IMG/VR virus record: IMGVR_UViG_3300047160_005727 | Location: 64,001-128,000 of that record | DNA from: a virus | Length of the DNA stretch: 64,000 nucleotides | Direction: 5' to 3' (one strand) | Made by a program: the position numbers and the translations under genes | In this document: piece after piece, positions 13,361 through 52,151 of the stretch | How the letters are laid out: every line of letters starts with the position of its first letter | How positions within the stretch are numbered: position 1 is the first letter of the stretch | The notes under the pieces: model-generated | Told to the model about the DNA's origin: nothing | Seen by the model: only the letters and a program-made list of their open reading frames with translations | The model's database searches: none

Positions 13361-14638
13361 ATGGCTGAAAAGAAGAAACTCGATCTGCGCAGCCGGCCCA
13401 AGACACCACCGCCGGCAGCAGCCCCGGTGACTGTTCAGCGAGATGCCTTGGGGCCTGATGTCTACAAGCCGGGGCAAGTGCTGGATCCGCGGTACCTGAC
13501 TCCTTTCGAGCGACAGCAGCTGGAGTCGATCGGCTGGGAAGAGGGCTCGCCGGTGCCGGGCAATGCTGCCGAACTGATCAAGGCGGTCCAAGAGGAAGCG
13601 ACTGCCGAAGGCGTCTTGCCGGTGCCGGCCGATACACCGCCGCTGACAATGCCCGACCCCATCGACATCAGCAGGTTACCTGCCGCGAAACAAAAGGAGC
13701 TGTACGCGGCGATCAAGAAGGCCGGCCAGTACCAGAAGCAGCTTGCCGAACAGGGCGCCGCTGTTGCTAACCTGAACCCCGACATCGCCGAGGCCGTACG
13801 GGTAGCCGACGATGTCGCGCGAGCCAACAACCCGCCGCGTGGCATCACTGTCGTCGACGACCGGCCGTTCCGAGCACCCCAGGCATCTACTGCTACTGCT
13901 ACTGCTACAGCTCAGAAACCCCGGCCGAAGGGCTGGCCCAAGCCTGAGCCCCCGGCGCCTGAGCCCCCACCAGAGCCGATACCACAGCCGGGTCCGGCAG
14001 GTTGGAAGCGACCCGCACCGCCACCATTCGAGCCGCCGCCGAGCGAGCCGCCATCTAGCCCACCGATCGGCGATCTCTCGGACGCTGGTGGGGTTGGGAT
14101 CACTCACTGCCCGCATTGCAGCTGGGACCTGAAGCAGGATGATCCCAGCGATCCAACTGATGCCGATAAGCGGGTCTATCTGATGGCCGCCCTGGCCGGG
14201 CCTGGCCATCGTTTCGCCCGCGAGACTTCACTGCTGGGTGGGACGGTCAAAGTTGGCTACCGTGAGCTGACCGGCGGCGAGGCCGACGCCGCCTTGACCC
14301 AGATCGCCGAGGACGTTCGCAGGAACCGGGTCGTCGGCGACGGCGAATGGTGGCAGCGGCTGATGGACTACCGCATGACCCAGGCCATCGAATACATCGA
14401 CATCAATGGCGTGGGTCGCGTGTACGAGGGTGTCGAACTGGACGAGATCGAGTCGGATGACGGTAACCTGACGGCGTTCCCGGCGCTGGTAGGACACCTG
14501 CTAACTAATGTCCTGCACAGTGAGAGTCTGCGGCGGGCGGTCGGTCAGGGATACATGCGGTTTCAGCGGTTATGCGAGAAGCTCGAAGCCAATGCGGACT
14601 CAGAGTCTTTCTGGAACGGGATCGGTTCGCCTCGCTGA
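13361..14638 (+). CDS. Putative tail assembly chaperone (long, Pro-rich linker, CPHC)
   Basis: Two genes upstream of the tape measure. Chaperone-like C-terminal domain (VKVGYRELTGGEAD...) ending ESFWNGIGSPR. Confidence 0.5.
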   Translation: MAEKKKLDLRSRPKTPPPAAAPVTVQRDALGPDVYKPGQVLDPRYLTPFERQQLESIGWEEGSPVPGNAAELIKAVQEEATAEGVLPVPADTPPLTMPDPIDISRLPAAKQKELYAAIKKAGQYQKQLAEQGAAVANLNPDIAEAVRVADDVARANNPPRGITVVDDRPFRAPQASTATATATAQKPRPKGWPKPEPPAPEPPPEPIPQPGPAGWKRPAPPPFEPPPSEPPSSPPIGDLSDAGGVGITHCPHCSWDLKQDDPSDPTDADKRVYLMAALAGPGHRFARETSLLGGTVKVGYRELTGGEADAALTQIAEDVRRNRVVGDGEWWQRLMDYRMTQAIEYIDINGVGRVYEGVELDEIESDDGNLTAFPALVGHLLTNVLHSESLRRAVGQGYMRFQRLCEKLEANADSESFWNGIGSPR

Positions 14639-15066
14639 TGGTGCAGGCTGCCGCAGCTGGGGTCGTAGACTTCAGCCGGGCCGATCCCGACGATCCCAAG
14701 TGGTGGCGGCACTTGCGTTTGGTCCTCGATCAACTGGAGCGGAACCACCTCAAGGAATATCATCGGCTGTACAATGAGCGGGTCATATCGGTGCTGTCCC
14801 GCGCCGATCTGGCCAGAGAGTCAGGGGAAAAGTTACTGGAGGAGTCTGACTCACGGATCGACAATATCGCCAAGATCATGTTTCCGTGGGCCGATCTGGA
14901 CCGTACAACGATACGGCAGGAGCAAGCCAAGCAATTACGCGAGCTTTGGGAGTCCTGGTTCGGCAAGCTGGATGATCCTGATACGCAACGGCGGATCCAG
15001 GTTACGGCAGACTGGCTGAGGAACACCGCTGCAAGGCGGAAGACCCCAGGGACGGGGAGGCGTTGA
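14638..15066 (+). CDS. Putative tail assembly chaperone second part (gpT-like)
   Basis: In the -1 frame relative to the upstream gene, open from at least 14572, with TGATG overlaps at both ends; immediately before the tape measure. Confidence 0.5.
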   Translation: MVQAAAAGVVDFSRADPDDPKWWRHLRLVLDQLERNHLKEYHRLYNERVISVLSRADLARESGEKLLEESDSRIDNIAKIMFPWADLDRTTIRQEQAKQLRELWESWFGKLDDPDTQRRIQVTADWLRNTAARRKTPGTGRR

Positions 15067-44982: not shown

Positions 44983-45267
44983 ATGGCGCTGGAGCTTGTA
45001 GATCAGCCAGAGGGTACCAAGGTCACCGTCAACGGCCCGAAGGCCACGGTAACCATCCAGGGAGACACGCCGGCCTCGGTGGGCAACACGGAGGCCAAGC
45101 AGATGGCGCTCAACGCGGCGCGGCCATTCCTCAGCAAGCCCGGCATCTCGAGTGTGAGCGGGCCTTATCCGGTGGATGCGGATGGCAACCAGCTCGAAGA
45201 CCCAACCAAGCCACGTCCCGAGGGTTTCCGGTTCCGTCAAGACTTCACGATACAGGAGGGAATGTGA
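44983..45267 (+). CDS. Hypothetical protein
   Basis: 94 aa, SD AGGAG. Confidence 0.7.
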   Translation: MALELVDQPEGTKVTVNGPKATVTIQGDTPASVGNTEAKQMALNAARPFLSKPGISSVSGPYPVDADGNQLEDPTKPRPEGFRFRQDFTIQEGM

Positions 45268-45800
45268 CAGCAAAGGTTCATGCCAGTCTCACCAAGTCAG
45301 AGGTGCAAGCGATCTTCCAGCTTGTCATCAAGTACAAGCAGCCGCCAGACCTGGAGGCAGAGCTATCTACGGCCGAGGCCCTTCTTCTTGTGGCGGCTGA
45401 TCTCCTCAAGACCTACGGCTTCGATCCCGCGTACGTGCTGACAGTTGCGAGCCGGCTGTGGAGCTGGCTCGGAGCCGACGATCGCCAGGTTCTGATGATC
45501 AACATCGTCGACCGCCGCTACGTCGGCTGGAACCCTGGCCCCATCTCCTTGACCGACATGATAACCGGCGGCGAGGTCGGTCCCGAGCAAGCGCTGTCCA
45601 GCCGTGTGCTGGAGTCAGTCTGTTACAACATCTACGAGCTGCTCGATCGTCGCAAGGCGATGGCCCGCGGCGAGCGGGGGTCGCTCTGGGAGGGTAAGGA
45701 TGCCGCAGGTAAAGCCACATGTGGTGCGCCGGGCGGAGGTAGCGCCGACCTGGGAGAACCCCAAGTCGTTTGCGACGACCTTGGTGCACCTATTCCATGA
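45264..45800 (+). CDS. Hypothetical protein
   Basis: GTG start overlapping the upstream stop, SD AGGAGG; 178 aa. Confidence 0.6.
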   Translation: MTAKVHASLTKSEVQAIFQLVIKYKQPPDLEAELSTAEALLLVAADLLKTYGFDPAYVLTVASRLWSWLGADDRQVLMINIVDRRYVGWNPGPISLTDMITGGEVGPEQALSSRVLESVCYNIYELLDRRKAMARGERGSLWEGKDAAGKATCGAPGGGSADLGEPQVVCDDLGAPIP

Positions 45801-46428
45801 CGAGTATTACGATCCCAAAGATCCGCCAAGGGAGAGCTGCTACACATGGCACCCAGGGACGATCCTGCTCGAGATCCGCGACGACTTCGGCGTCGAGCTG
45901 CCACCGGCCAATTTCGCCCGGCTCATGGCGGGGATCCACCTGCTCACATCGGACGCCTTCTACAAGAGCGTTCCCACCTTCATCGAGATCTGCAACGTCC
46001 TCTCTGGTGGGATCTACGACCCGGCCACCTGGGATCCCGCCGATGCTCTGGAATGTGCCTGGGGTATCACGGAGGCGATGCTGCTAGCGCCGCCCGACGA
46101 TGACGATGAAGAACCTTTTTCTGAAGAGATCCGCGCTTACATCGGCGCGGCACTGGACGAGGAGGGTATACTCGACCCACCAGACGTGCTTCGGATCGCG
46201 ATCCGAGGTGACGGTCATCGCTCGGCTGCCCAGGTCTCGTCGCAGTTCGACGACCACGAGACCCGGACATCCATTGCACAGACGGAGGCTGCGAAGGTCG
46301 CTGAGATCAACGGTCACATCAAGTCGAACCTGCGGATGCTGACTGCACAGCTGGCAGCGTTGCACCTGGCTCATGGCGATGCCGGGGCGCTGGCAGGCAA
46401 ACTCGCCCGTACATTGGGCAAGGAGTGA
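45700..46428 (+). CDS. Hypothetical protein
   Basis: 242 aa with strong codon bias; overlaps the upstream gene by 101 nt. Confidence 0.7.
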   Translation: MPQVKPHVVRRAEVAPTWENPKSFATTLVHLFHDEYYDPKDPPRESCYTWHPGTILLEIRDDFGVELPPANFARLMAGIHLLTSDAFYKSVPTFIEICNVLSGGIYDPATWDPADALECAWGITEAMLLAPPDDDDEEPFSEEIRAYIGAALDEEGILDPPDVLRIAIRGDGHRSAAQVSSQFDDHETRTSIAQTEAAKVAEINGHIKSNLRMLTAQLAALHLAHGDAGALAGKLARTLGKE

Positions 46429-46431
46429 GAG

Positions 46432-46815
46432 ATGCCACTTACGAACCAGAAGCTGGCGGTAGCCAAGCAATGGGTGGTCTCGAAGCAGGGCAAGTTTGCC
46501 ACCGTCGGTGGCGGGCTCGGCATCAGACCCAAGATCTACGACAACGCGGCTGCCGCCCAGTACGCCATCCAGACCAACCCCAGGCTCCGGGGTGGGGTCG
46601 TGGTCCCCTACACGATGGAGTCCAAGGCTGCTTTCGATGCCGAAGCCAACAAGGTCAACGCGGCTGCTGCGAAGACCCCCGGCAAGGCACCTGGGCCTAG
46701 CCAGGCGACGCCTGGCGTGTTCGCTACCACTACCAAGTCCAAGGCAGTGAAACCCAAGGCGACGGCTGCACCTGTCGCTCCGGGTAAACGTGCTGCCGCT
46801 GGCAAAGTAAAATGA
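46432..46815 (+). CDS. Basic Lys/Ala-rich protein (histone-like tail)
   Basis: C-terminus TTKSKAVKPKATAAPVAPGKRAAAGKVK; SD AAGGAG. Confidence 0.65.
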   Translation: MPLTNQKLAVAKQWVVSKQGKFATVGGGLGIRPKIYDNAAAAQYAIQTNPRLRGGVVVPYTMESKAAFDAEANKVNAAAAKTPGKAPGPSQATPGVFATTTKSKAVKPKATAAPVAPGKRAAAGKVK

Positions 46816-46912: not shown

Positions 46913-48643
46913 ATGCCCGCAGCTAACCAGAACCCACAGCCACCCAAGGTCAACCCGGACTTCGAGAGGCGCGCTCAGATCCTCTGGGGTTCAAGCCAAA
47001 GCGCGGTGTCCGTCCGGACTACCGAGGATGGCCGGTTCATCCGCGACATCCAGACAGTCATGTCGAAGATCGCCCCTGACTGTGCAACCGTGATCTGGGA
47101 CAGAGCCCGCGGCTTCAACTGGGACCGCATCGACGAGCATACCCACGTCAAGAAGCCACTACCGTTCGGTAATGGTTCAGACTACACCAACATGCTGGTA
47201 GCCCTGGAGGCTGTTGCCAAGCTGGAGTCGGGGAAGATGCGGAAGGGAGTGTTCGTCTTCCTGGATCCGCACGACGTCTTCGATGACCTGACCGAAGGCC
47301 CGGCCTGCCGGCGGGTCGTCAAGACGATGATCAACGATCTACAGCTCTGCACACCCAAGAACGACGACACTGGCGATCCAGGGCACCGGCGTCAGATCAT
47401 CTTCGTGTCACCGGTGCCGATCCACCGAGAGCTGCACGAGTACGTCGTGCCGCTCGACTACCCTCGTCCCACCGAGGAAGAGCACGAAGAGACGGTCAAG
47501 GTCGTCGAGAGCGGTACCTCCGGCAAGAAGTGCTCAGACGAGATCCGGGAAGCCCTTGCTGCAATAGGCATCGGCCTGACCTGGATCCAGTTCGAGAACG
47601 CCGTGGCCGAGGCCACTCACGCGCACAAGGGCTTCGAGCCCGCTGTGCTGGATACGGTCGAGCAGAAGAAGGCTGACCTGATCGCCCAGCAGGGCTTTCT
47701 TACCTACGTCCCGTTCAACCGGCTACCCAAGGATGGCGAGGTTCGCGGCTTCGAGGAAGTCCATGAGTTCCTGGCCATGCAGGCCCAGTCCTACAAACAG
47801 GAAGTCATGGGCCTGGACAGGCCCAAGGGCATGCTGCTCATGGGAGTGGCCGGCACCGGCAAGAGCATGATGGGCAAGCTGGCTGCCCGCATCTTCTACA
47901 ACGCAACCGGCAAGCGGTTTCCGGTCTACCTGCTCAACGTGCCGGCTCTGTTCGGCGGCATCGTGGGCCAGACCGAGGCCAATGTCCGCTGGGTCACCGA
48001 GACCCTGAGTGCTCAGGGCCACTACCTGCTGGTGATCGATGAGCTGGAGAAGATGCTTGCGACTGGCGGCTACAACGGCGACTCGGGTGTCTCGCTGAGA
48101 GCGGTCGGCCAGATCCTGTCGTGGCTGTCCGAGCGGGTCAACAACCCGAACGACAAGGGCTACATCATCGGTACCCTGAACACGATCGAGGGCATCAGGC
48201 CGGAGTTCTTCCGCCGGTTCGACGCCGCCTTCTACACCGATCTACCTTACCCTGAGATCCGCAAGGAGATCATCACCAGCCACTTCCAGCGGCGTGGTGT
48301 GAACGTCGCCAAGCTGGTTGGTGCGGATGGCACGCCACTGACTGGCGATGACTGGGACGCGCTCATTACCGGCACCGAGAACTTCATCGGCTCCGAGCTG
48401 GAGGATGTCGTCACCCAGTCGCGGGCGCTGGCTGCTTACAAGCGCGGCGTCTCCGTACCGATCTTCGAGGAGATCGAGCAGACGGTCAGGAACCGGGCTC
48501 AGAACATCGTGGCCAAGACCCACAAGCACGATGTGGACTCCGTTCGTGACTACTGCAAGTCGTCAGCCCGCCCTGTCTACGTCCAGAAGGTGACCGCGAA
48601 CAAGATCGCCAAGCGGTCGCGCCAGGTAAACACTGGAGAGTGA
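46913..48643 (+). CDS. AAA+ ATPase, Ycf46-like
   Basis: Degenerate N-terminal domain (VRTTEDGR, FVFLDPH), Walker A GVAGTGKS, Walker B LLVIDELEK, DSGVS, and RPEFFRRFD. Confidence 0.9.
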   Translation: MPAANQNPQPPKVNPDFERRAQILWGSSQSAVSVRTTEDGRFIRDIQTVMSKIAPDCATVIWDRARGFNWDRIDEHTHVKKPLPFGNGSDYTNMLVALEAVAKLESGKMRKGVFVFLDPHDVFDDLTEGPACRRVVKTMINDLQLCTPKNDDTGDPGHRRQIIFVSPVPIHRELHEYVVPLDYPRPTEEEHEETVKVVESGTSGKKCSDEIREALAAIGIGLTWIQFENAVAEATHAHKGFEPAVLDTVEQKKADLIAQQGFLTYVPFNRLPKDGEVRGFEEVHEFLAMQAQSYKQEVMGLDRPKGMLLMGVAGTGKSMMGKLAARIFYNATGKRFPVYLLNVPALFGGIVGQTEANVRWVTETLSAQGHYLLVIDELEKMLATGGYNGDSGVSLRAVGQILSWLSERVNNPNDKGYIIGTLNTIEGIRPEFFRRFDAAFYTDLPYPEIRKEIITSHFQRRGVNVAKLVGADGTPLTGDDWDALITGTENFIGSELEDVVTQSRALAAYKRGVSVPIFEEIEQTVRNRAQNIVAKTHKHDVDSVRDYCKSSARPVYVQKVTANKIAKRSRQVNTGE

Positions 48644-48644
48644 C

Positions 48645-48839
48645 ATGCCCAAGCAGATCATCTTCGATATCGATCCGGCGACCGGTGGTGTGACCATCGA
48701 GGCCAAGGGCTTCAAGGGCCCCGAGTGCAAGACCGCTACCGCTCCCTACGAGAAGCTCTTCGGAACCCCCGAGTCTGATACGCCCACCAAGGAGATGGGC
48801 GCCAAGACCGTGGAGCATGTCAAGCAGACCCAGGGGTAG
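48645..48839 (+). CDS. DUF2997-like small protein
   Basis: IIFDIDPATGGVTIEAKGFKGPECKTATAPYEKLFG matches the recalled DUF2997 pattern; next to a Ycf46-like ATPase. Confidence 0.75.
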   Translation: MPKQIIFDIDPATGGVTIEAKGFKGPECKTATAPYEKLFGTPESDTPTKEMGAKTVEHVKQTQG

Positions 48840-48841
48840 CC

Positions 48842-49201
48842 ATGCTGAAAGAGCTGGTCTTTGATATCGGCCCGGACGGGATCGTTCGCTACATACACAG
48901 CGACGAAGCCGTTCGACTGGCGGCCGGGCTCGGCCGTCCAGTCATCAACCGGGCCAGCCATGTCGAGTACGACAACGAGAAGGGTGGATGGACGGCCGAC
49001 ATGTCCCCGTTAGGATCATCTACGATCCTCGGCCCGTTCACCACCAGGGATGAAGCCCTCGAACGTGAGCATACATGGCTCATGGAAAACATGCCGGCGC
49101 TGCTATGTGGGCAGTGTCGCGAAGCTGACCTTCCATTGGAGTCCCGACATGAGTACAGCCACCATGGCACCGATGAACGTAACCTCGGACATGTCAGATG
49201 A
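48842..49201 (+). CDS. Conserved hypothetical protein of the AAA/DUF2997 cluster
   Basis: IGPDG.VR....LGRP.I.RASHVE....GW.ADMSP....LGPF..R.EAL..E..WL motif, recalled from Planctomycete AAA clusters. Confidence 0.65.
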   Translation: MLKELVFDIGPDGIVRYIHSDEAVRLAAGLGRPVINRASHVEYDNEKGGWTADMSPLGSSTILGPFTTRDEALEREHTWLMENMPALLCGQCREADLPLESRHEYSHHGTDERNLGHVR

Positions 49202-50183
49202 TACCCCGGTCGACAGCATCAAGCTGGACACGGACATCTATCTGATCTCTATCAAAAAGCACTACTGGAGCGGCGAGCACGTGCTCGATGACAGGGCCAA
49301 GGCCCGGGTCGAAGTCAAGGGCCAGACGGTTGACTCCGATCTGCTCAAGAAGTCGACCGTGCTCTTGATCCCCAAGAAGCTGCGGAGCGTGTTGACGCCT
49401 GGCTACTCGGCGGTCGATAGCGTGATCATCCGGTACACTACTAACTTCACCGGTGCCCGGGCGCTCGCTGCGGCATCCAAGGCTGCCTTCTTCAAGGACC
49501 TGAAGGAAGCTCGGGCCATCCTGGACGAATGCGTCGAGAGCTTCGTCGAGCGCTATCCCGACGAGGTCATCGAGTACAACAAGGCGCGTTGGGAGAAGAC
49601 CCTGGGCGATGACTATCCGTTGTTCATCGGTCGGTTGATCCCGAGCGCCGACGCTGTTGGTTCGCGGTACGGCTACAGTGTCCGCGACATCCGCCGGCTG
49701 GAAGCCCCCAGCGCCGAGTACAAGGCGCTGCTCAAGCTCGACAAGGAGATGCTCGCTGAGGTCCGCAAGAACAAGCGAGCCGACTACGAGGCGGCCATGG
49801 ATGAGCTGGTGTCCGGTCCTCGACTGACACTGGCTTCAGCCATGGACGATCTGATCAAGCAGCTCTCTGCGGGCAAGATCCTCAAGCGGGGGTCATTCAA
49901 CGGCGTGCTGGATGCTATCGCTCTCAACCGGGCGTTCGCCGGCACCATCACCGATGCCAAGTTGCTGGCGGCAGCAACGGCACTCGAGAAGAAGATCGGC
50001 GAGGCGATCGAAGATGCCGAGACCAACGTGAGCAGCACCCAGACCTGGTCTGATCTGCTCTGGAAGCACAAGGCGACGCTCACCGAGGCCATCGGGCCTG
50101 TGGCTGAAGCCACCAAGGACTCCGCTGCGGTGGAGCAGGTCCGTCGACACCTGAATGCGAGGGTACGCCCGGTCGACGTGTGA
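49149..50183 (+). CDS. DUF3150-like helical protein
   Basis: 344 aa; I...YWSG...LL.....LLIPK..R pattern; mostly helical; start uncertain. Confidence 0.55.
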   Translation: MSTATMAPMNVTSDMSDDTPVDSIKLDTDIYLISIKKHYWSGEHVLDDRAKARVEVKGQTVDSDLLKKSTVLLIPKKLRSVLTPGYSAVDSVIIRYTTNFTGARALAAASKAAFFKDLKEARAILDECVESFVERYPDEVIEYNKARWEKTLGDDYPLFIGRLIPSADAVGSRYGYSVRDIRRLEAPSAEYKALLKLDKEMLAEVRKNKRADYEAAMDELVSGPRLTLASAMDDLIKQLSAGKILKRGSFNGVLDAIALNRAFAGTITDAKLLAAATALEKKIGEAIEDAETNVSSTQTWSDLLWKHKATLTEAIGPVAEATKDSAAVEQVRRHLNARVRPVDV

Positions 50184-50208
50184 GAGGTGAAGTTGACGGA
50201 GCCCTCAC

Positions 50209-50817
50209 GTGGGCATAAAGATCATCTACGAAGTGCCGGCTGCGGCCGGCACTGCCTTCACCTACTCGGTTCAAAGGCATGAAGACGGGGCGTTCTTCGA
50301 CTTCGAGCAGAAAACATTTCGTCCGCTCGAATGTATTGCGCCGCACGCAGCCCGTAGGCTGCTTCGCCGCGGCGTCAGAGGTCTGTTCGCTAACTTCAAG
50401 CACTCGGAGGTCGGCAAAAAGTATATCATCCTCGTCGTGGAAGCTAGCCCGCACGGCTCGATCATCGCCGAGGTGCCGGTAACCGACTACGGGAAAGGAC
50501 AGCACATGGATCCGAGTTACCGGAAAGGTAAGAAGTTCGTGGACGGCAAGGCGATCGATGCCAAGTATCGTCTCGTCGTCTTCGGTGATGATGGATCCAC
50601 CGTCTATACCGCTACTCTGTGGGAAGACGGTACCACTTCGTGCAACTGCCCGCGGTGGGGGCCGAAGCAGCCTGGCCTGGGTCGTAGATGTATCCATTCC
50701 GTACGGGCCGCGAAACTCACCGCCAATGTCGACGAGACCGGCGAGCAGCCGGGCCCGCCGCCACCAACTCCTGGTAATAACCCGTTCCGGCGGCGCTCCC
50801 GATCTATCGATACCTGA
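50209..50817 (+). CDS. SWIM-type zinc-finger protein 1
   Basis: SCNCPRW...RRCIH; possible internal start at ATG 50505. Confidence 0.7.
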   Translation: MGIKIIYEVPAAAGTAFTYSVQRHEDGAFFDFEQKTFRPLECIAPHAARRLLRRGVRGLFANFKHSEVGKKYIILVVEASPHGSIIAEVPVTDYGKGQHMDPSYRKGKKFVDGKAIDAKYRLVVFGDDGSTVYTATLWEDGTTSCNCPRWGPKQPGLGRRCIHSVRAAKLTANVDETGEQPGPPPPTPGNNPFRRRSRSIDT

Positions 50818-50836
50818 GCGCCCAAGGAGGATCAGC

Positions 50837-51157
50837 GTGAAACCATCTTTTCGGAGGGGCAAGAAGTTCCTCGGCGACGAGACTGTCGAACCCAAGCACC
50901 GGCTCATTACGTTCGGCAGCGACGGCGTCACCGTCTATACAGCTACCTTGTGGGTCGACGGCACTACCTCGTGTAACTGCCCGGCCTGGCGGTTCGCCAA
51001 GGGTGACACCCGGAAGTGTAAGCACTCCCTGCGTGCTGCCAGCTTGACCGCCACCATCGACGAGACAGGCACCATTCGCGCTACATCGGCCGCCACGGAG
51101 GAGTCCCAGATGGGATCCAGCCCGTTCAAGCGGCGCACCCGATCGGTGGATACCTGA
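50837..51157 (+). CDS. SWIM-type zinc-finger protein 2 (paralog)
   Basis: GTG start with SD AAGGAGG; SCNCPAW...RKCKH. Confidence 0.75.
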   Translation: MKPSFRRGKKFLGDETVEPKHRLITFGSDGVTVYTATLWVDGTTSCNCPAWRFAKGDTRKCKHSLRAASLTATIDETGTIRATSAATEESQMGSSPFKRRTRSVDT

Positions 51158-51432
51158 TGTTCCACGTCAAGTACCGAGACTTCTTCAAGAAGCTCGTGAT
51201 CATGGAGGGGCGATCCGACTACGAGGACGCCGTGTCCGAAGCGGAAGACTGCGCGAGCGCAGGCCATGCCGAGGTGGAGATCCTCGTTTCCCTTGGAACT
51301 GCCGACGAGAACATGGAGCTGGCCGAGGCTGACTCCCGTCGCTTCATCGCAACGGGAGTAGAGCGCGGATGGCCCAAAGACGGCGGCCTCGACTCTTTGG
51401 CGATCCCCACATCGCCAAGCTCGGGGGGTTGA
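51157..51432 (+). CDS. Hypothetical acidic protein
   Basis: 91 aa, TGATG coupling. Confidence 0.55.
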   Translation: MFHVKYRDFFKKLVIMEGRSDYEDAVSEAEDCASAGHAEVEILVSLGTADENMELAEADSRRFIATGVERGWPKDGGLDSLAIPTSPSSGG

Positions 51433-52151
51433 TCTACCCGTTCTCCATCCCGGCTCGCCGAACATGTCCGGGTAAGAGCCGCTTCTGTGCTGCGCTATGC
51501 TACGCCGACACCGGGTTCTTCGTGATGGAGAACGTCAAGCGCAAGCACATTGCTAACCTGAAGCGGACCCGCGAAGCCAGCTTCGTCGACGACGTCGTAG
51601 CCGAGATCAAGTCGCGATGCATCGCCGTCGCCCGCGTTCACATGGCGGGTGACTTTTACTCGGCCGCCTACGGCTGGAAGTGGGTCTCGATCGTACGCCA
51701 GTGCCACCGCACCACGTTCCTCTGCTACACACGGAGCTGGACGCAGGATGCGATCATGCCGGCCCTGGCCAAGCTAGCTACCATGAAGAACATGCATCTG
51801 TGGTTCTCCACAGATCACCAGATGCCTGATGCCCCAGCTATCCCCGGGGTGCGGATCGCCTACCTGATGGCGCGAGACGAGGACCCATCCCAGGTTCCGC
51901 CCGGTCAGCACCTTGTCTTCCGCGATAATGAACACCCGCCCATGAAGCGGGCCAACGGCGTGCTTGTTTGCCCTTATGAACAGGGCATCGACCGCCAGGT
52001 TAAGATCACGTGTTCGAGTTGTCGTATTTGTTGGACGCCAGAAAGGAAGAACCATGGCAACGAAGAAGAGAACCCGCGCAAGTCGCACTGCGAAGCCCTC
52101 CGTCGGCGCCTCCGCCAGCGGAAAGCCAAGCGAACCCGCCGGCCACGGTGA
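51369..52151 (+). CDS. GP88-like protein (divergent radical-SAM-like Cys motif)
   Basis: FSIPA..TCPG....C...CYA, RVHMAGDFYS, CYTRSW, and C-terminal CP...TCSSCRIC. Confidence 0.7.
   Translation: MAQRRRPRLFGDPHIAKLGGLIYPFSIPARRTCPGKSRFCAALCYADTGFFVMENVKRKHIANLKRTREASFVDDVVAEIKSRCIAVARVHMAGDFYSAAYGWKWVSIVRQCHRTTFLCYTRSWTQDAIMPALAKLATMKNMHLWFSTDHQMPDAPAIPGVRIAYLMARDEDPSQVPPGQHLVFRDNEHPPMKRANGVLVCPYEQGIDRQVKITCSSCRICWTPERKNHGNEEENPRKSHCEALRRRLRQRKAKRTRRPR

Follow-up and report, generated by a model that had tools for sequence, protein, structure and literature searches.

Four neighbouring genes on a viral DNA record raise the question of why an AAA+ ATPase and proteins of unrelated fold encoded downstream of it should carry the same short peptide at their C-termini. 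The record is IMG/VR entry IMGVR_UViG_3300047160_005727 (141,143 bp, CheckV completeness 68%), and the window is the whole stretch of 64,000 nucleotides at its positions 64001-128000, in whose own numbering coordinates are given below. The peptide, R-x-R-x-[VI]-[DN]-[TV], referred to here as the tag, lies at the C-terminus of a Cdc48/p97-like ATPase, a DUF3150-like protein, and two proteins with a SWIM signature (SWIM-1 and SWIM-2). An initial annotation of the window had read it as a dedicated docking or substrate tag, recognized either by the pore of the ATPase or by a small adaptor. The comparisons described here indicate that the tag is maintained by selection at the protein level and that its spelling shifts jointly on the ATPase and its partners, and on balance they point to docking as its probable role. 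The genes and tags are as follows.

46913-48643, + strand: Cdc48/p97-like tandem AAA+ ATPase, 576 amino acids (PF00004, phrog_8638, AlphaFold2 model and Foldseek)
48614-48634, + strand: ATPase tag RSRQVNT, followed by G-E and the stop (C-terminus K-RSRQVNT-GE; from the sequence)
48645-48839, + strand: DUF2997 protein, 64 amino acids, untagged (PF11211)
48842-49201, + strand: 'RASHVE' protein, 119 amino acids, untagged (alignments A4 and A6)
49149-50183, + strand: DUF3150-like protein, 344 amino acids, with a start conserved in relatives (weak PF11348 match, alignment A5)
50160-50180, + strand: DUF3150-like tag RVRPVDV at the extreme C-terminus (A-RVRPVDV; from the sequence)
50209-50817, + strand: SWIM-1, 202 amino acids, with an N-terminal domain, a CxC...CxH module, a Pro-rich linker and the tag (alignment A1)
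50794-50814, + strand: SWIM-1 tag RSRSIDT at the extreme C-terminus (R-RSRSIDT; from the sequence)
50837-51157, + strand: SWIM-2, 106 amino acids, GTG start read from the sequence; aligns with SWIM-1 residues ~100-202
51134-51154, + strand: SWIM-2 tag RTRSVDT at the extreme C-terminus (K-RTRSVDT; from the sequence)

Occurrence of the tag in the viral record

Re-reading the sequence gave the four C-termini exactly as first spelled. The pattern R.R.[VI][DN][TV] was run on the 2009 stop-to-stop open reading frames (ORFs) of at least 40 amino acids in all six frames of the whole record, a search that the initial annotation had called for. It returned five matches, four of which are the C-termini of the operon and the fifth of which is internal to a 908-amino acid ORF. 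When each ORF was shuffled (200 shuffles), C-terminal matches averaged 0.045 with a maximum of 2, against the 4 observed. SWIM-2, including its tail, is paralogous to the C-terminal half of SWIM-1 (alignment A1), and the independent occurrences therefore number three (ATPase, DUF3150-like and SWIM) rather than four. The description of an ATPase and three downstream proteins with three unrelated folds thus stands as to the folds, with the amendment that paralogy links two of the three downstream proteins. The motif is real and rare, lies at or no more than two residues from the C-terminus, and is common to three unrelated folds.

The tag was also said to follow mostly on linker-like segments. 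This holds for the SWIM proteins (alignment A1), with some 25-30 flexible residues ahead of the tag in SWIM-1, and for the ATPase, whose last 16 residues have a predicted local distance difference test (pLDDT) score of ~50, that is, are disordered in the monomer model. On the DUF3150-like protein the tail seemingly extends only ~8 residues past conserved, helix-like sequence, as judged from alignment A5.

Conservation and selection

In an alignment of 24 SWIM homologues of ~50% identity, residues R196, R198, V200, D201 and T202 each show conservation of 90% or more. The end of the protein, P-F-[RK]-R-R-S-R-x-V-D-T, is nearly invariant, and the Pro-rich linker that precedes it varies in length and sequence. 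ATPase homologues of 74-82% identity retain KRSRQVNTG[DE], RVRPVDV is retained on the DUF3150-like protein in loci L001, L002 and L013 with synonymous codon changes, and in these same loci the motif is kept on all four proteins. Conservation in homologues and homologous operons, by which the initial annotation proposed to judge the tag, thus extends to relatives of the SWIM, ATPase and DUF3150-like proteins. The tag also has the generic features of a short linear motif: it is a few residues long, lies in a disordered region, stays conserved beside a flank that varies and recurs on unrelated proteins.

The four tails are encoded by differing codons, and relatives differ at synonymous sites while the residues stay the same; constraint therefore acts on the peptide and not on the DNA, and a DNA-level cause of the shared tail is ruled out. 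The peptide is under selection at the protein level. A single coincidence at the DNA level concerns the end of the ATPase gene (48632-48647), whose last three codons, ACT GGA GAG (T-G-E), contain GGAGAG. This sequence lies four bases upstream of the DUF2997 start codon ATG and resembles a Shine-Dalgarno site; relatives have GGAGAC, GGTGAC or GGGGAA there. This overlap may explain the G-[DE] that follows the ATPase tag.

Co-variation of tails across operons

In operons whose ATPases are 31-57% identical to the one in the window the spelling of the tail differs, yet it shifts jointly on the ATPase and its partners, as in the following loci.

L005, ATPase 57% identical: ATPase tail VVNTGE; partner tails RVRTVDVD and RRVVDTD
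L006, ATPase 54% identical: ATPase tail RRRVAEAGEN; partner tails RVRRVAVD and RQRRVDID
L007, ATPase 35-36% identical: ATPase tail RRGGKSTE; partner tails RRGRVTE, RRAFRITE and RRGGRVTE
L011, ATPase 34% identical: ATPase tail KRALTLQ; partner tail PRALTF
L012, ATPase 31-32% identical: ATPase tail GRERRDVGLDA; partner tails GREARGLDL, GRELRGIMLE and GRSARELDI

Four proteins of L007 end in TE after an RR..R run, and GRE.R..LD recurs on four proteins of L012. In a permutation test with one operon per lineage, the similarity of tails across protein families was 21.8 within operons and 14.1 between operons (orthologous tails compared between operons score 15.7), and none of 5000 label shuffles reached the within-operon value. 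A scan of IMG/VR with the ATPase alignment added 80 more loci (186 relatives in IMG/VR), many of which co-vary in other spellings, such as R-[SA]-I-N-L-N / R-A-[VI]-[VL]-L-D / R-A-[VI]-[VL]-L-[DN] (for example RAINLN / RAVVLD / RAVVLN) or SRAATLDL / SRASVLEL / SRAAMLEL. Across the ATPase family the tails have a common core, R-x-aliphatic-[D/E/N]-aliphatic or Thr. On these comparisons of sequence, R-x-R-x-[VI]-[DN]-[TV] is one lineage's spelling of this wider R-x-aliphatic-[DEN]-aliphatic/Thr tail.

The same data bear on the idea that the resemblance arose by chance, by paralogy or from a signal in the DNA. In its favor, the pattern was composed after the four tails had been seen, SWIM-1 and SWIM-2 are paralogous, and the T-G-E of the ATPase overlaps the Shine-Dalgarno-like sequence. 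It is refuted by the shuffles (0.045 expected against four observed, on three unrelated folds), by the permutation test, with the tails conserved and co-varying in independent lineages, and by the differing and synonymously varying codons; the likelihood left to it is negligible.

Co-variation within operons would also be expected if no separate reader existed and the tails paired with one another, for instance as an intermolecular beta-zipper that glues the ATPase to its partners. The alternating R-x-R-x-V-D-T, with R, R, V and T on one face, would suit a beta-strand. However, a stretch of seven residues is short for a stable homotypic assembly, and the ATPase copies differ systematically from those of the partners, tending to have N or Q where partners have D or E and carrying one to three extra residues; mutual pairing is thus very unlikely.

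Basic tails with the common core span the ATPase family, well beyond the lineages with tagged partners, and for this reason the ATPase tail is taken as the original ligand. A crude comparison of the split between tailed and tailless ATPases with gene content found that crisp tails accompany DUF3150 and SWIM, an association that is probably phylogenetic.

Tagged proteins outside the operon

The complete genome of a relative, G001 (226,073 bp, 100% complete, with an ATPase 75% identical to that of this record), shows that the tag extends beyond the operon. Six further G001 proteins, encoded at 163-210 kb and 114 to 664 amino acids long, end in the strict motif, all of them behind P/G/S/A-rich segments. 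These six ORFan proteins are encoded in the following four ranges of G001; three of the genes are adjacent.

L101:11603-13767
L102:952-2946
L103:4316-4819
L103:18948-19700

In a second relative, G002 (78% complete), orthologues of three of the six retain the tag at 63-89% identity, two of them at the very C-terminus and the third at four residues from the end. The six proteins had no match in Pfam, PHROG or NCBIfam, and the 664-amino acid protein, the one of the six that was searched against the PDB, had no convincing match there. Another G001 protein has the motif 10 residues from its end and was not counted; its orthologue in the window (14524-15066) is without the motif.

The record studied here is colinear only with 21-136 kb of G001, and the counterpart of the 163-210 kb region is missing from it. 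The absence of any other tagged protein is therefore true of the data in hand and probably not of the phage: the earlier statement to this effect is borne out for this 68%-complete record and fails for the lineage.

The ATPase

The ATPase matches PF00004 over residues 307-442 (E=4e-15) and phrog_8638 over its full length. Its AlphaFold2 model (pLDDT 87.6) was aligned by Foldseek over ~580 columns to the D1-D2 tandem of p97/Cdc48/Rix7 (E ~1e-18, template modelling (TM) score 0.5-0.58). The only Walker A (GVAGTGKS, residue 311) and the only Walker B (LLVIDE, residue 372) of the protein lie in its second domain; D1 is therefore degenerate and without a P-loop, and D2 is the active domain. The arginines of the second region of homology (R434/R435) are conserved in alignment A2, and with Walker A, Walker B and these arginines in one domain the enzyme is a classical-clade AAA+ protein. 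Its pore loop, GGIVGQTE, is Ycf46-like. The N-terminal cofactor-binding domain of the Cdc48 type is absent from the model and the fold alignment, in which the protein begins at the D1-like domain, and the protein reaches 46.5 bits with the curated CDC48 model TIGR01243, whose cut-off is 802.65. The ATPase thus has a Cdc48-like tandem D1-D2 build, but it is not a member of the Cdc48/p97 subfamily. Among its homologues, the 883-amino acid protein P0035 (63% identity over about half of the query) has intein/homing-endonuclease domains (PF05204, PF05203 and PF14528) inside the AAA+ gene.

An enzyme of this kind could engage the tail in its central pore and unfold or remodel the proteins that carry it, so that the tag would be a degron-like substrate signal, which is the tag-and-remodel scheme of the initial annotation. 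The classical-clade, Cdc48-like unfoldase type with one active ring would fit this scheme, and the ~25-30 flexible residues before the SWIM-1 tag would be a usable initiation region. There is also precedent in ClpX, which remodels the transpososome by recognizing the basic sequence RRKKAI at the C-terminus of MuA. Against the scheme, the ATPase is itself tagged, and the DUF3150-like tail, ~8 residues from helix-like sequence as alignment A5 suggests, probably does not extend far enough to meet pore loops. Recognition by a pore tends to be loose as to sequence and fits poorly with tight lineage-specific co-variation, and neither the phage nor its complete relative encodes a ClpP or proteasome partner. 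Pore threading is weaker than docking as an account of the tail, and we regard a substrate tag as doubtful.

The tagged partners

The DUF3150-like protein matches PF11348 at 16.8 bits (E=0.0045), below the cut-off of 24.9; its relatives carry faint matches to the same family, and 14-25% of its neighbour clusters in the ESM Atlas are PF11348. The SWIM signature, CxCx(n)CxH, is formed by C145, C147, C161 and H163, which are invariant in the 24 sequences of alignment A1. Neither SWIM-1 nor SWIM-2 matched a Pfam family at E<=0.01, and profile searches of the PDB for DUF2997, SWIM and DUF3150 gave nothing usable.

The untagged core

The ORFs of ~87 loci were clustered into families, and the ATPase was found at 87 loci, DUF2997 at 75, DUF1257 at 70, DUF3150 at 49, RASHVE-like proteins at 40 and SWIM at 20. 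Tails of DUF3150 and SWIM resemble the tail of their own ATPase more than a foreign one (15.1 vs 11.2 and 18.5 vs 12.7, respectively), and 57% of SWIM tails reach a score of at least 18 against their own ATPase, as opposed to 13% against a foreign one. DUF2997, DUF1257 and RASHVE-like proteins have no tagged copy across the ~87 loci, and their tails score no higher against their own ATPase tail than against a foreign one. The module therefore consists of an untagged core and tagged accessories. DUF2997 and RASHVE, present in nearly every locus and never tagged, emerge from this census as candidate readers of the tag.

The DUF2997 protein of the window matches PF11211 at 40.7 bits (39.9 bits in the genome-level search; cut-off 24.1), and the profile also has matches in Synechococcus elongatus. 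It has one invariant cysteine (C28) and, in this lineage, a conserved C-terminal Q-x-Q-G (alignment A3). A single stop-to-stop ORF at L026:8356-9027 matches DUF1257 (E=1.5e-32) and, weakly, DUF2997 (E=0.0076), and may be a natural fusion of two untagged core proteins.

The RASHVE-like family, for which Pfam has no model, numbers 4209 cluster representatives at E<=0.001. The AlphaFold2 model of the RASHVE protein (pLDDT 81.7) has a hairpin and a core of three strands and a helix. A Foldseek search with this model gave no match at E<=0.001, and VIA-align gave weak matches only (Z 3.2-4.2), with AP2/GCC-box, lambda Int N-domain, WGR and HicB among many rows. A PDB profile match to the UBC domain of BIRC6 (E=0.023) was dropped as an identification of the fold, with no support from the fold searches. 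The 242-amino acid protein P0196 joins a RASHVE-like domain to a homing-endonuclease domain of the HNH_3 type, and fusion to a homing-endonuclease domain is the architecture usual for AP2-type DNA-binding domains. The fusion and the weak AP2/Int-N resemblance offer a lead, and only that, towards DNA binding by the family. The RASHVE gene overlaps the DUF3150-like gene by 53 nt (49149-49201) when the start conserved in relatives is used; the overlap is 4 nt in L013. The C-terminal extra 20-odd residues of RASHVE in this record are not conserved.

The reader might also lie outside the phage module, with the tails binding a host factor (an unfoldase, a clamp or a hub like single-stranded DNA-binding protein) or nucleic acid, and their spelling tracking the host. 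The tails are arginine-rich, and several neighbours look DNA-associated, namely the K/A-rich protein encoded at 46432-46815, the SWIM fingers and RASHVE with its faint AP2/Int-N likeness. However, the L011 spelling, [KP]-R-A-L-T-[LF], is scarcely basic, and the specific aliphatic and acidic positions that co-vary would not be needed for binding nucleic acid. Basic tails with the common core also occur in much of the ATPase family, including lineages presumably on different hosts, which points to a ligand internal to the module. Recognition by a host factor or nucleic acid appears unlikely.

A probable docking motif and its possible readers

The reading that we favor is that the peptide is a short linear docking motif, which on balance would probably serve to bring the ATPase and its partners to one site on a common partner. 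Flexible C-terminal tails would carry the Cdc48/Ycf46-like ATPase and the partner proteins to the same binding site. The partner set would change between phages, being the DUF3150-like protein and two SWIM proteins here and including at least six more proteins in complete relatives. A single reader would impose the co-evolution seen as co-variation. The ATPase tail would be the ancestral ligand, of which partners later acquired copies. Of the initial proposal, the part that holds is a dedicated and selected tag on unrelated folds, tied to an AAA+ module; its restriction to the operon does not.

As to the reader, the binding site could be on the ring of the ATPase, where the tails of partners would mimic the enzyme's own tail or trade places with it, a possibility that we take seriously without expecting it. 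More tentatively, the reader could be DUF2997, with or without DUF1257 or RASHVE-like proteins; DUF2997 is placed first among the untagged core because it is the most widespread. That something else reads the tail seems improbable. The job of the module is probably the remodelling or extraction of protein assemblies. The K/A-rich, histone-like neighbour, the SWIM fingers and the faint AP2/Int-N likeness of RASHVE hint that it possibly acts on DNA.

Several points weigh against docking on a common reader. The case for it is wholly evolutionary, and co-variation could also come from tail-to-tail pairing or from a host factor. The ATPase motif has N where the partners have D, followed by two more residues, and the two classes of tail may not bind identically. 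The presence and absence of genes across loci singled out no reader. This record, 68% complete, has no DUF1257 gene, RASHVE-like genes were undetected in the tail-sharing loci L028, L030, L036 and L053, and DUF2997 was undetected in five compact loci, though small divergent candidates sit there.

Taken further, the tail might be a lineage-private recruitment code of a widespread Cdc48/Ycf46-like segregase. At least 10 phage proteins would be addressed to the ring by tail exchange at the tail site of a neighbouring subunit, and each lineage would re-spell the code so that co-infecting relatives could not cross-recruit. We consider this extension speculative and rather doubtful. Recruitment of this kind might also account for the Ycf46/Ycf35/DUF2997 genes of cyanobacteria and plastids.

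Comparison with known systems

Among Clp adaptors, the C-terminal tail of SspB binds ClpX from behind a flexible linker, and the phage tail would similarly, like that of SspB or the RRKKAI of MuA, be a short C-terminal peptide behind a flexible linker that addresses an AAA+ unfoldase. The MuA signal, basic and then aliphatic, resembles the phage tail in composition. Unlike the Clp systems, in which the unfoldase is without the motif, the phage ATPase is the most constant carrier. The VCP-binding motif (VBM) and VCP-interacting motif (VIM) of p97 are Arg-rich motifs of unrelated cofactors, helical and internal, that bind the p97 N domain, and the disordered C-terminal tail of p97 is bound by PUB/PUL domains. 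The phage module likewise has Arg-rich motifs on unrelated proteins together with a Cdc48/p97-type ATPase that has a disordered tail of its own. However, the phage ATPase is without the N domain to which VBM and VIM bind, and the phage motif is C-terminal.

In mycobacteria, a GQYL tail is common to the AAA+ protein Mpa and the unrelated Bpa, which was found by a genome search for the C-terminal motif of Mpa (PMC8223512). The phage case is like GQYL and the HbYX motif of PAN/Rpt/Cdc48 in that an AAA+ protein and unrelated proteins carry one short C-terminal motif for a common partner. The phage tails, in contrast, are Arg-x-aliphatic-acidic-aliphatic/Thr without a penultimate aromatic residue (ending V-D-T, V-D-V or V-N-T-G-E), further residues follow the ATPase copy, and the spelling drifts between lineages. 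Searches of the phage genomes G000, G001 (complete) and G002 for a 20S or Clp-type peptidase ring (PF00227, PF00574) gave no match, and the controls matched. The analogy with HbYX and GQYL is thus functional only, since no proteasome or ClpP-type ring is encoded.

DUF2997 adjoins DUF1257 in cyanobacteria (PMC4284462). The phage module has the same core families as the cyanobacterial and plastid genes for Ycf46 (AAA+), Ycf35 (DUF1257) and DUF2997, and differs from them in that this phage record is without DUF1257 and adds DUF3150-like, SWIM and RASHVE-like proteins. Literature searches turned up no paper that describes a common tail on proteins of this module, in agreement with the earlier description of the system as previously undescribed, and none giving the function of DUF2997, DUF1257 or DUF3150. 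What is new here is the R-x-R-x-[VI]-[DN]-[TV] spelling, the permutation test, the census of tagged and untagged families, and the tag beyond the operon in a complete relative.

The Ycf46-like ATPase, DUF2997, DUF1257, DUF3150 and RASHVE-like families are abundant in phages and occur partly in cyanobacteria and plastids. A seven-residue peptide could be used as bait for the hub, and the list of tagged proteins would define the partners or clients of the machine. As a rule for annotation, the C-terminus of an ATPase of this family can locate partners genome-wide. Should the ATPase ring be the reader, the tag would represent a novel mode of attaching cofactors to a machine of the Cdc48 type.

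Neighbouring genes

The tagged genes are surrounded by a single string of genes on the + strand, of which those next to the operon are as follows.

45604-46428, + strand: 274-amino acid protein
46432-46815, + strand: K/A-rich protein, 127 amino acids
51157-51432, + strand: 91-amino acid protein
51369-52151, + strand: GP88-family protein

The protein encoded at 46432-46815, directly upstream of the ATPase gene, is K/A/P-rich and histone H1-like, and relatives encode proteins with AAPKAAAK-type repeats at the same place (L007:7754-7900, L008:2676-2852). Downstream of the module, the Cys-rich protein at 51369-52151 belongs to the GP88 / DUF7227 family (PF17338, E=6e-34), and its gene is syntenic in many relatives (L006, L007, L008, L012 and L013). 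A protein of ~93 amino acids, encoded at 44983-45267, is conserved upstream of the module in ~20 loci (for example L005:6253-6534, L013:6155-6439 and L012:6593-6862). It has a conserved end of its own, [FY]-R-x-D-[FWY]-x-[IV]-x-x-G-[ML], and this end shows no co-variation with the tag.

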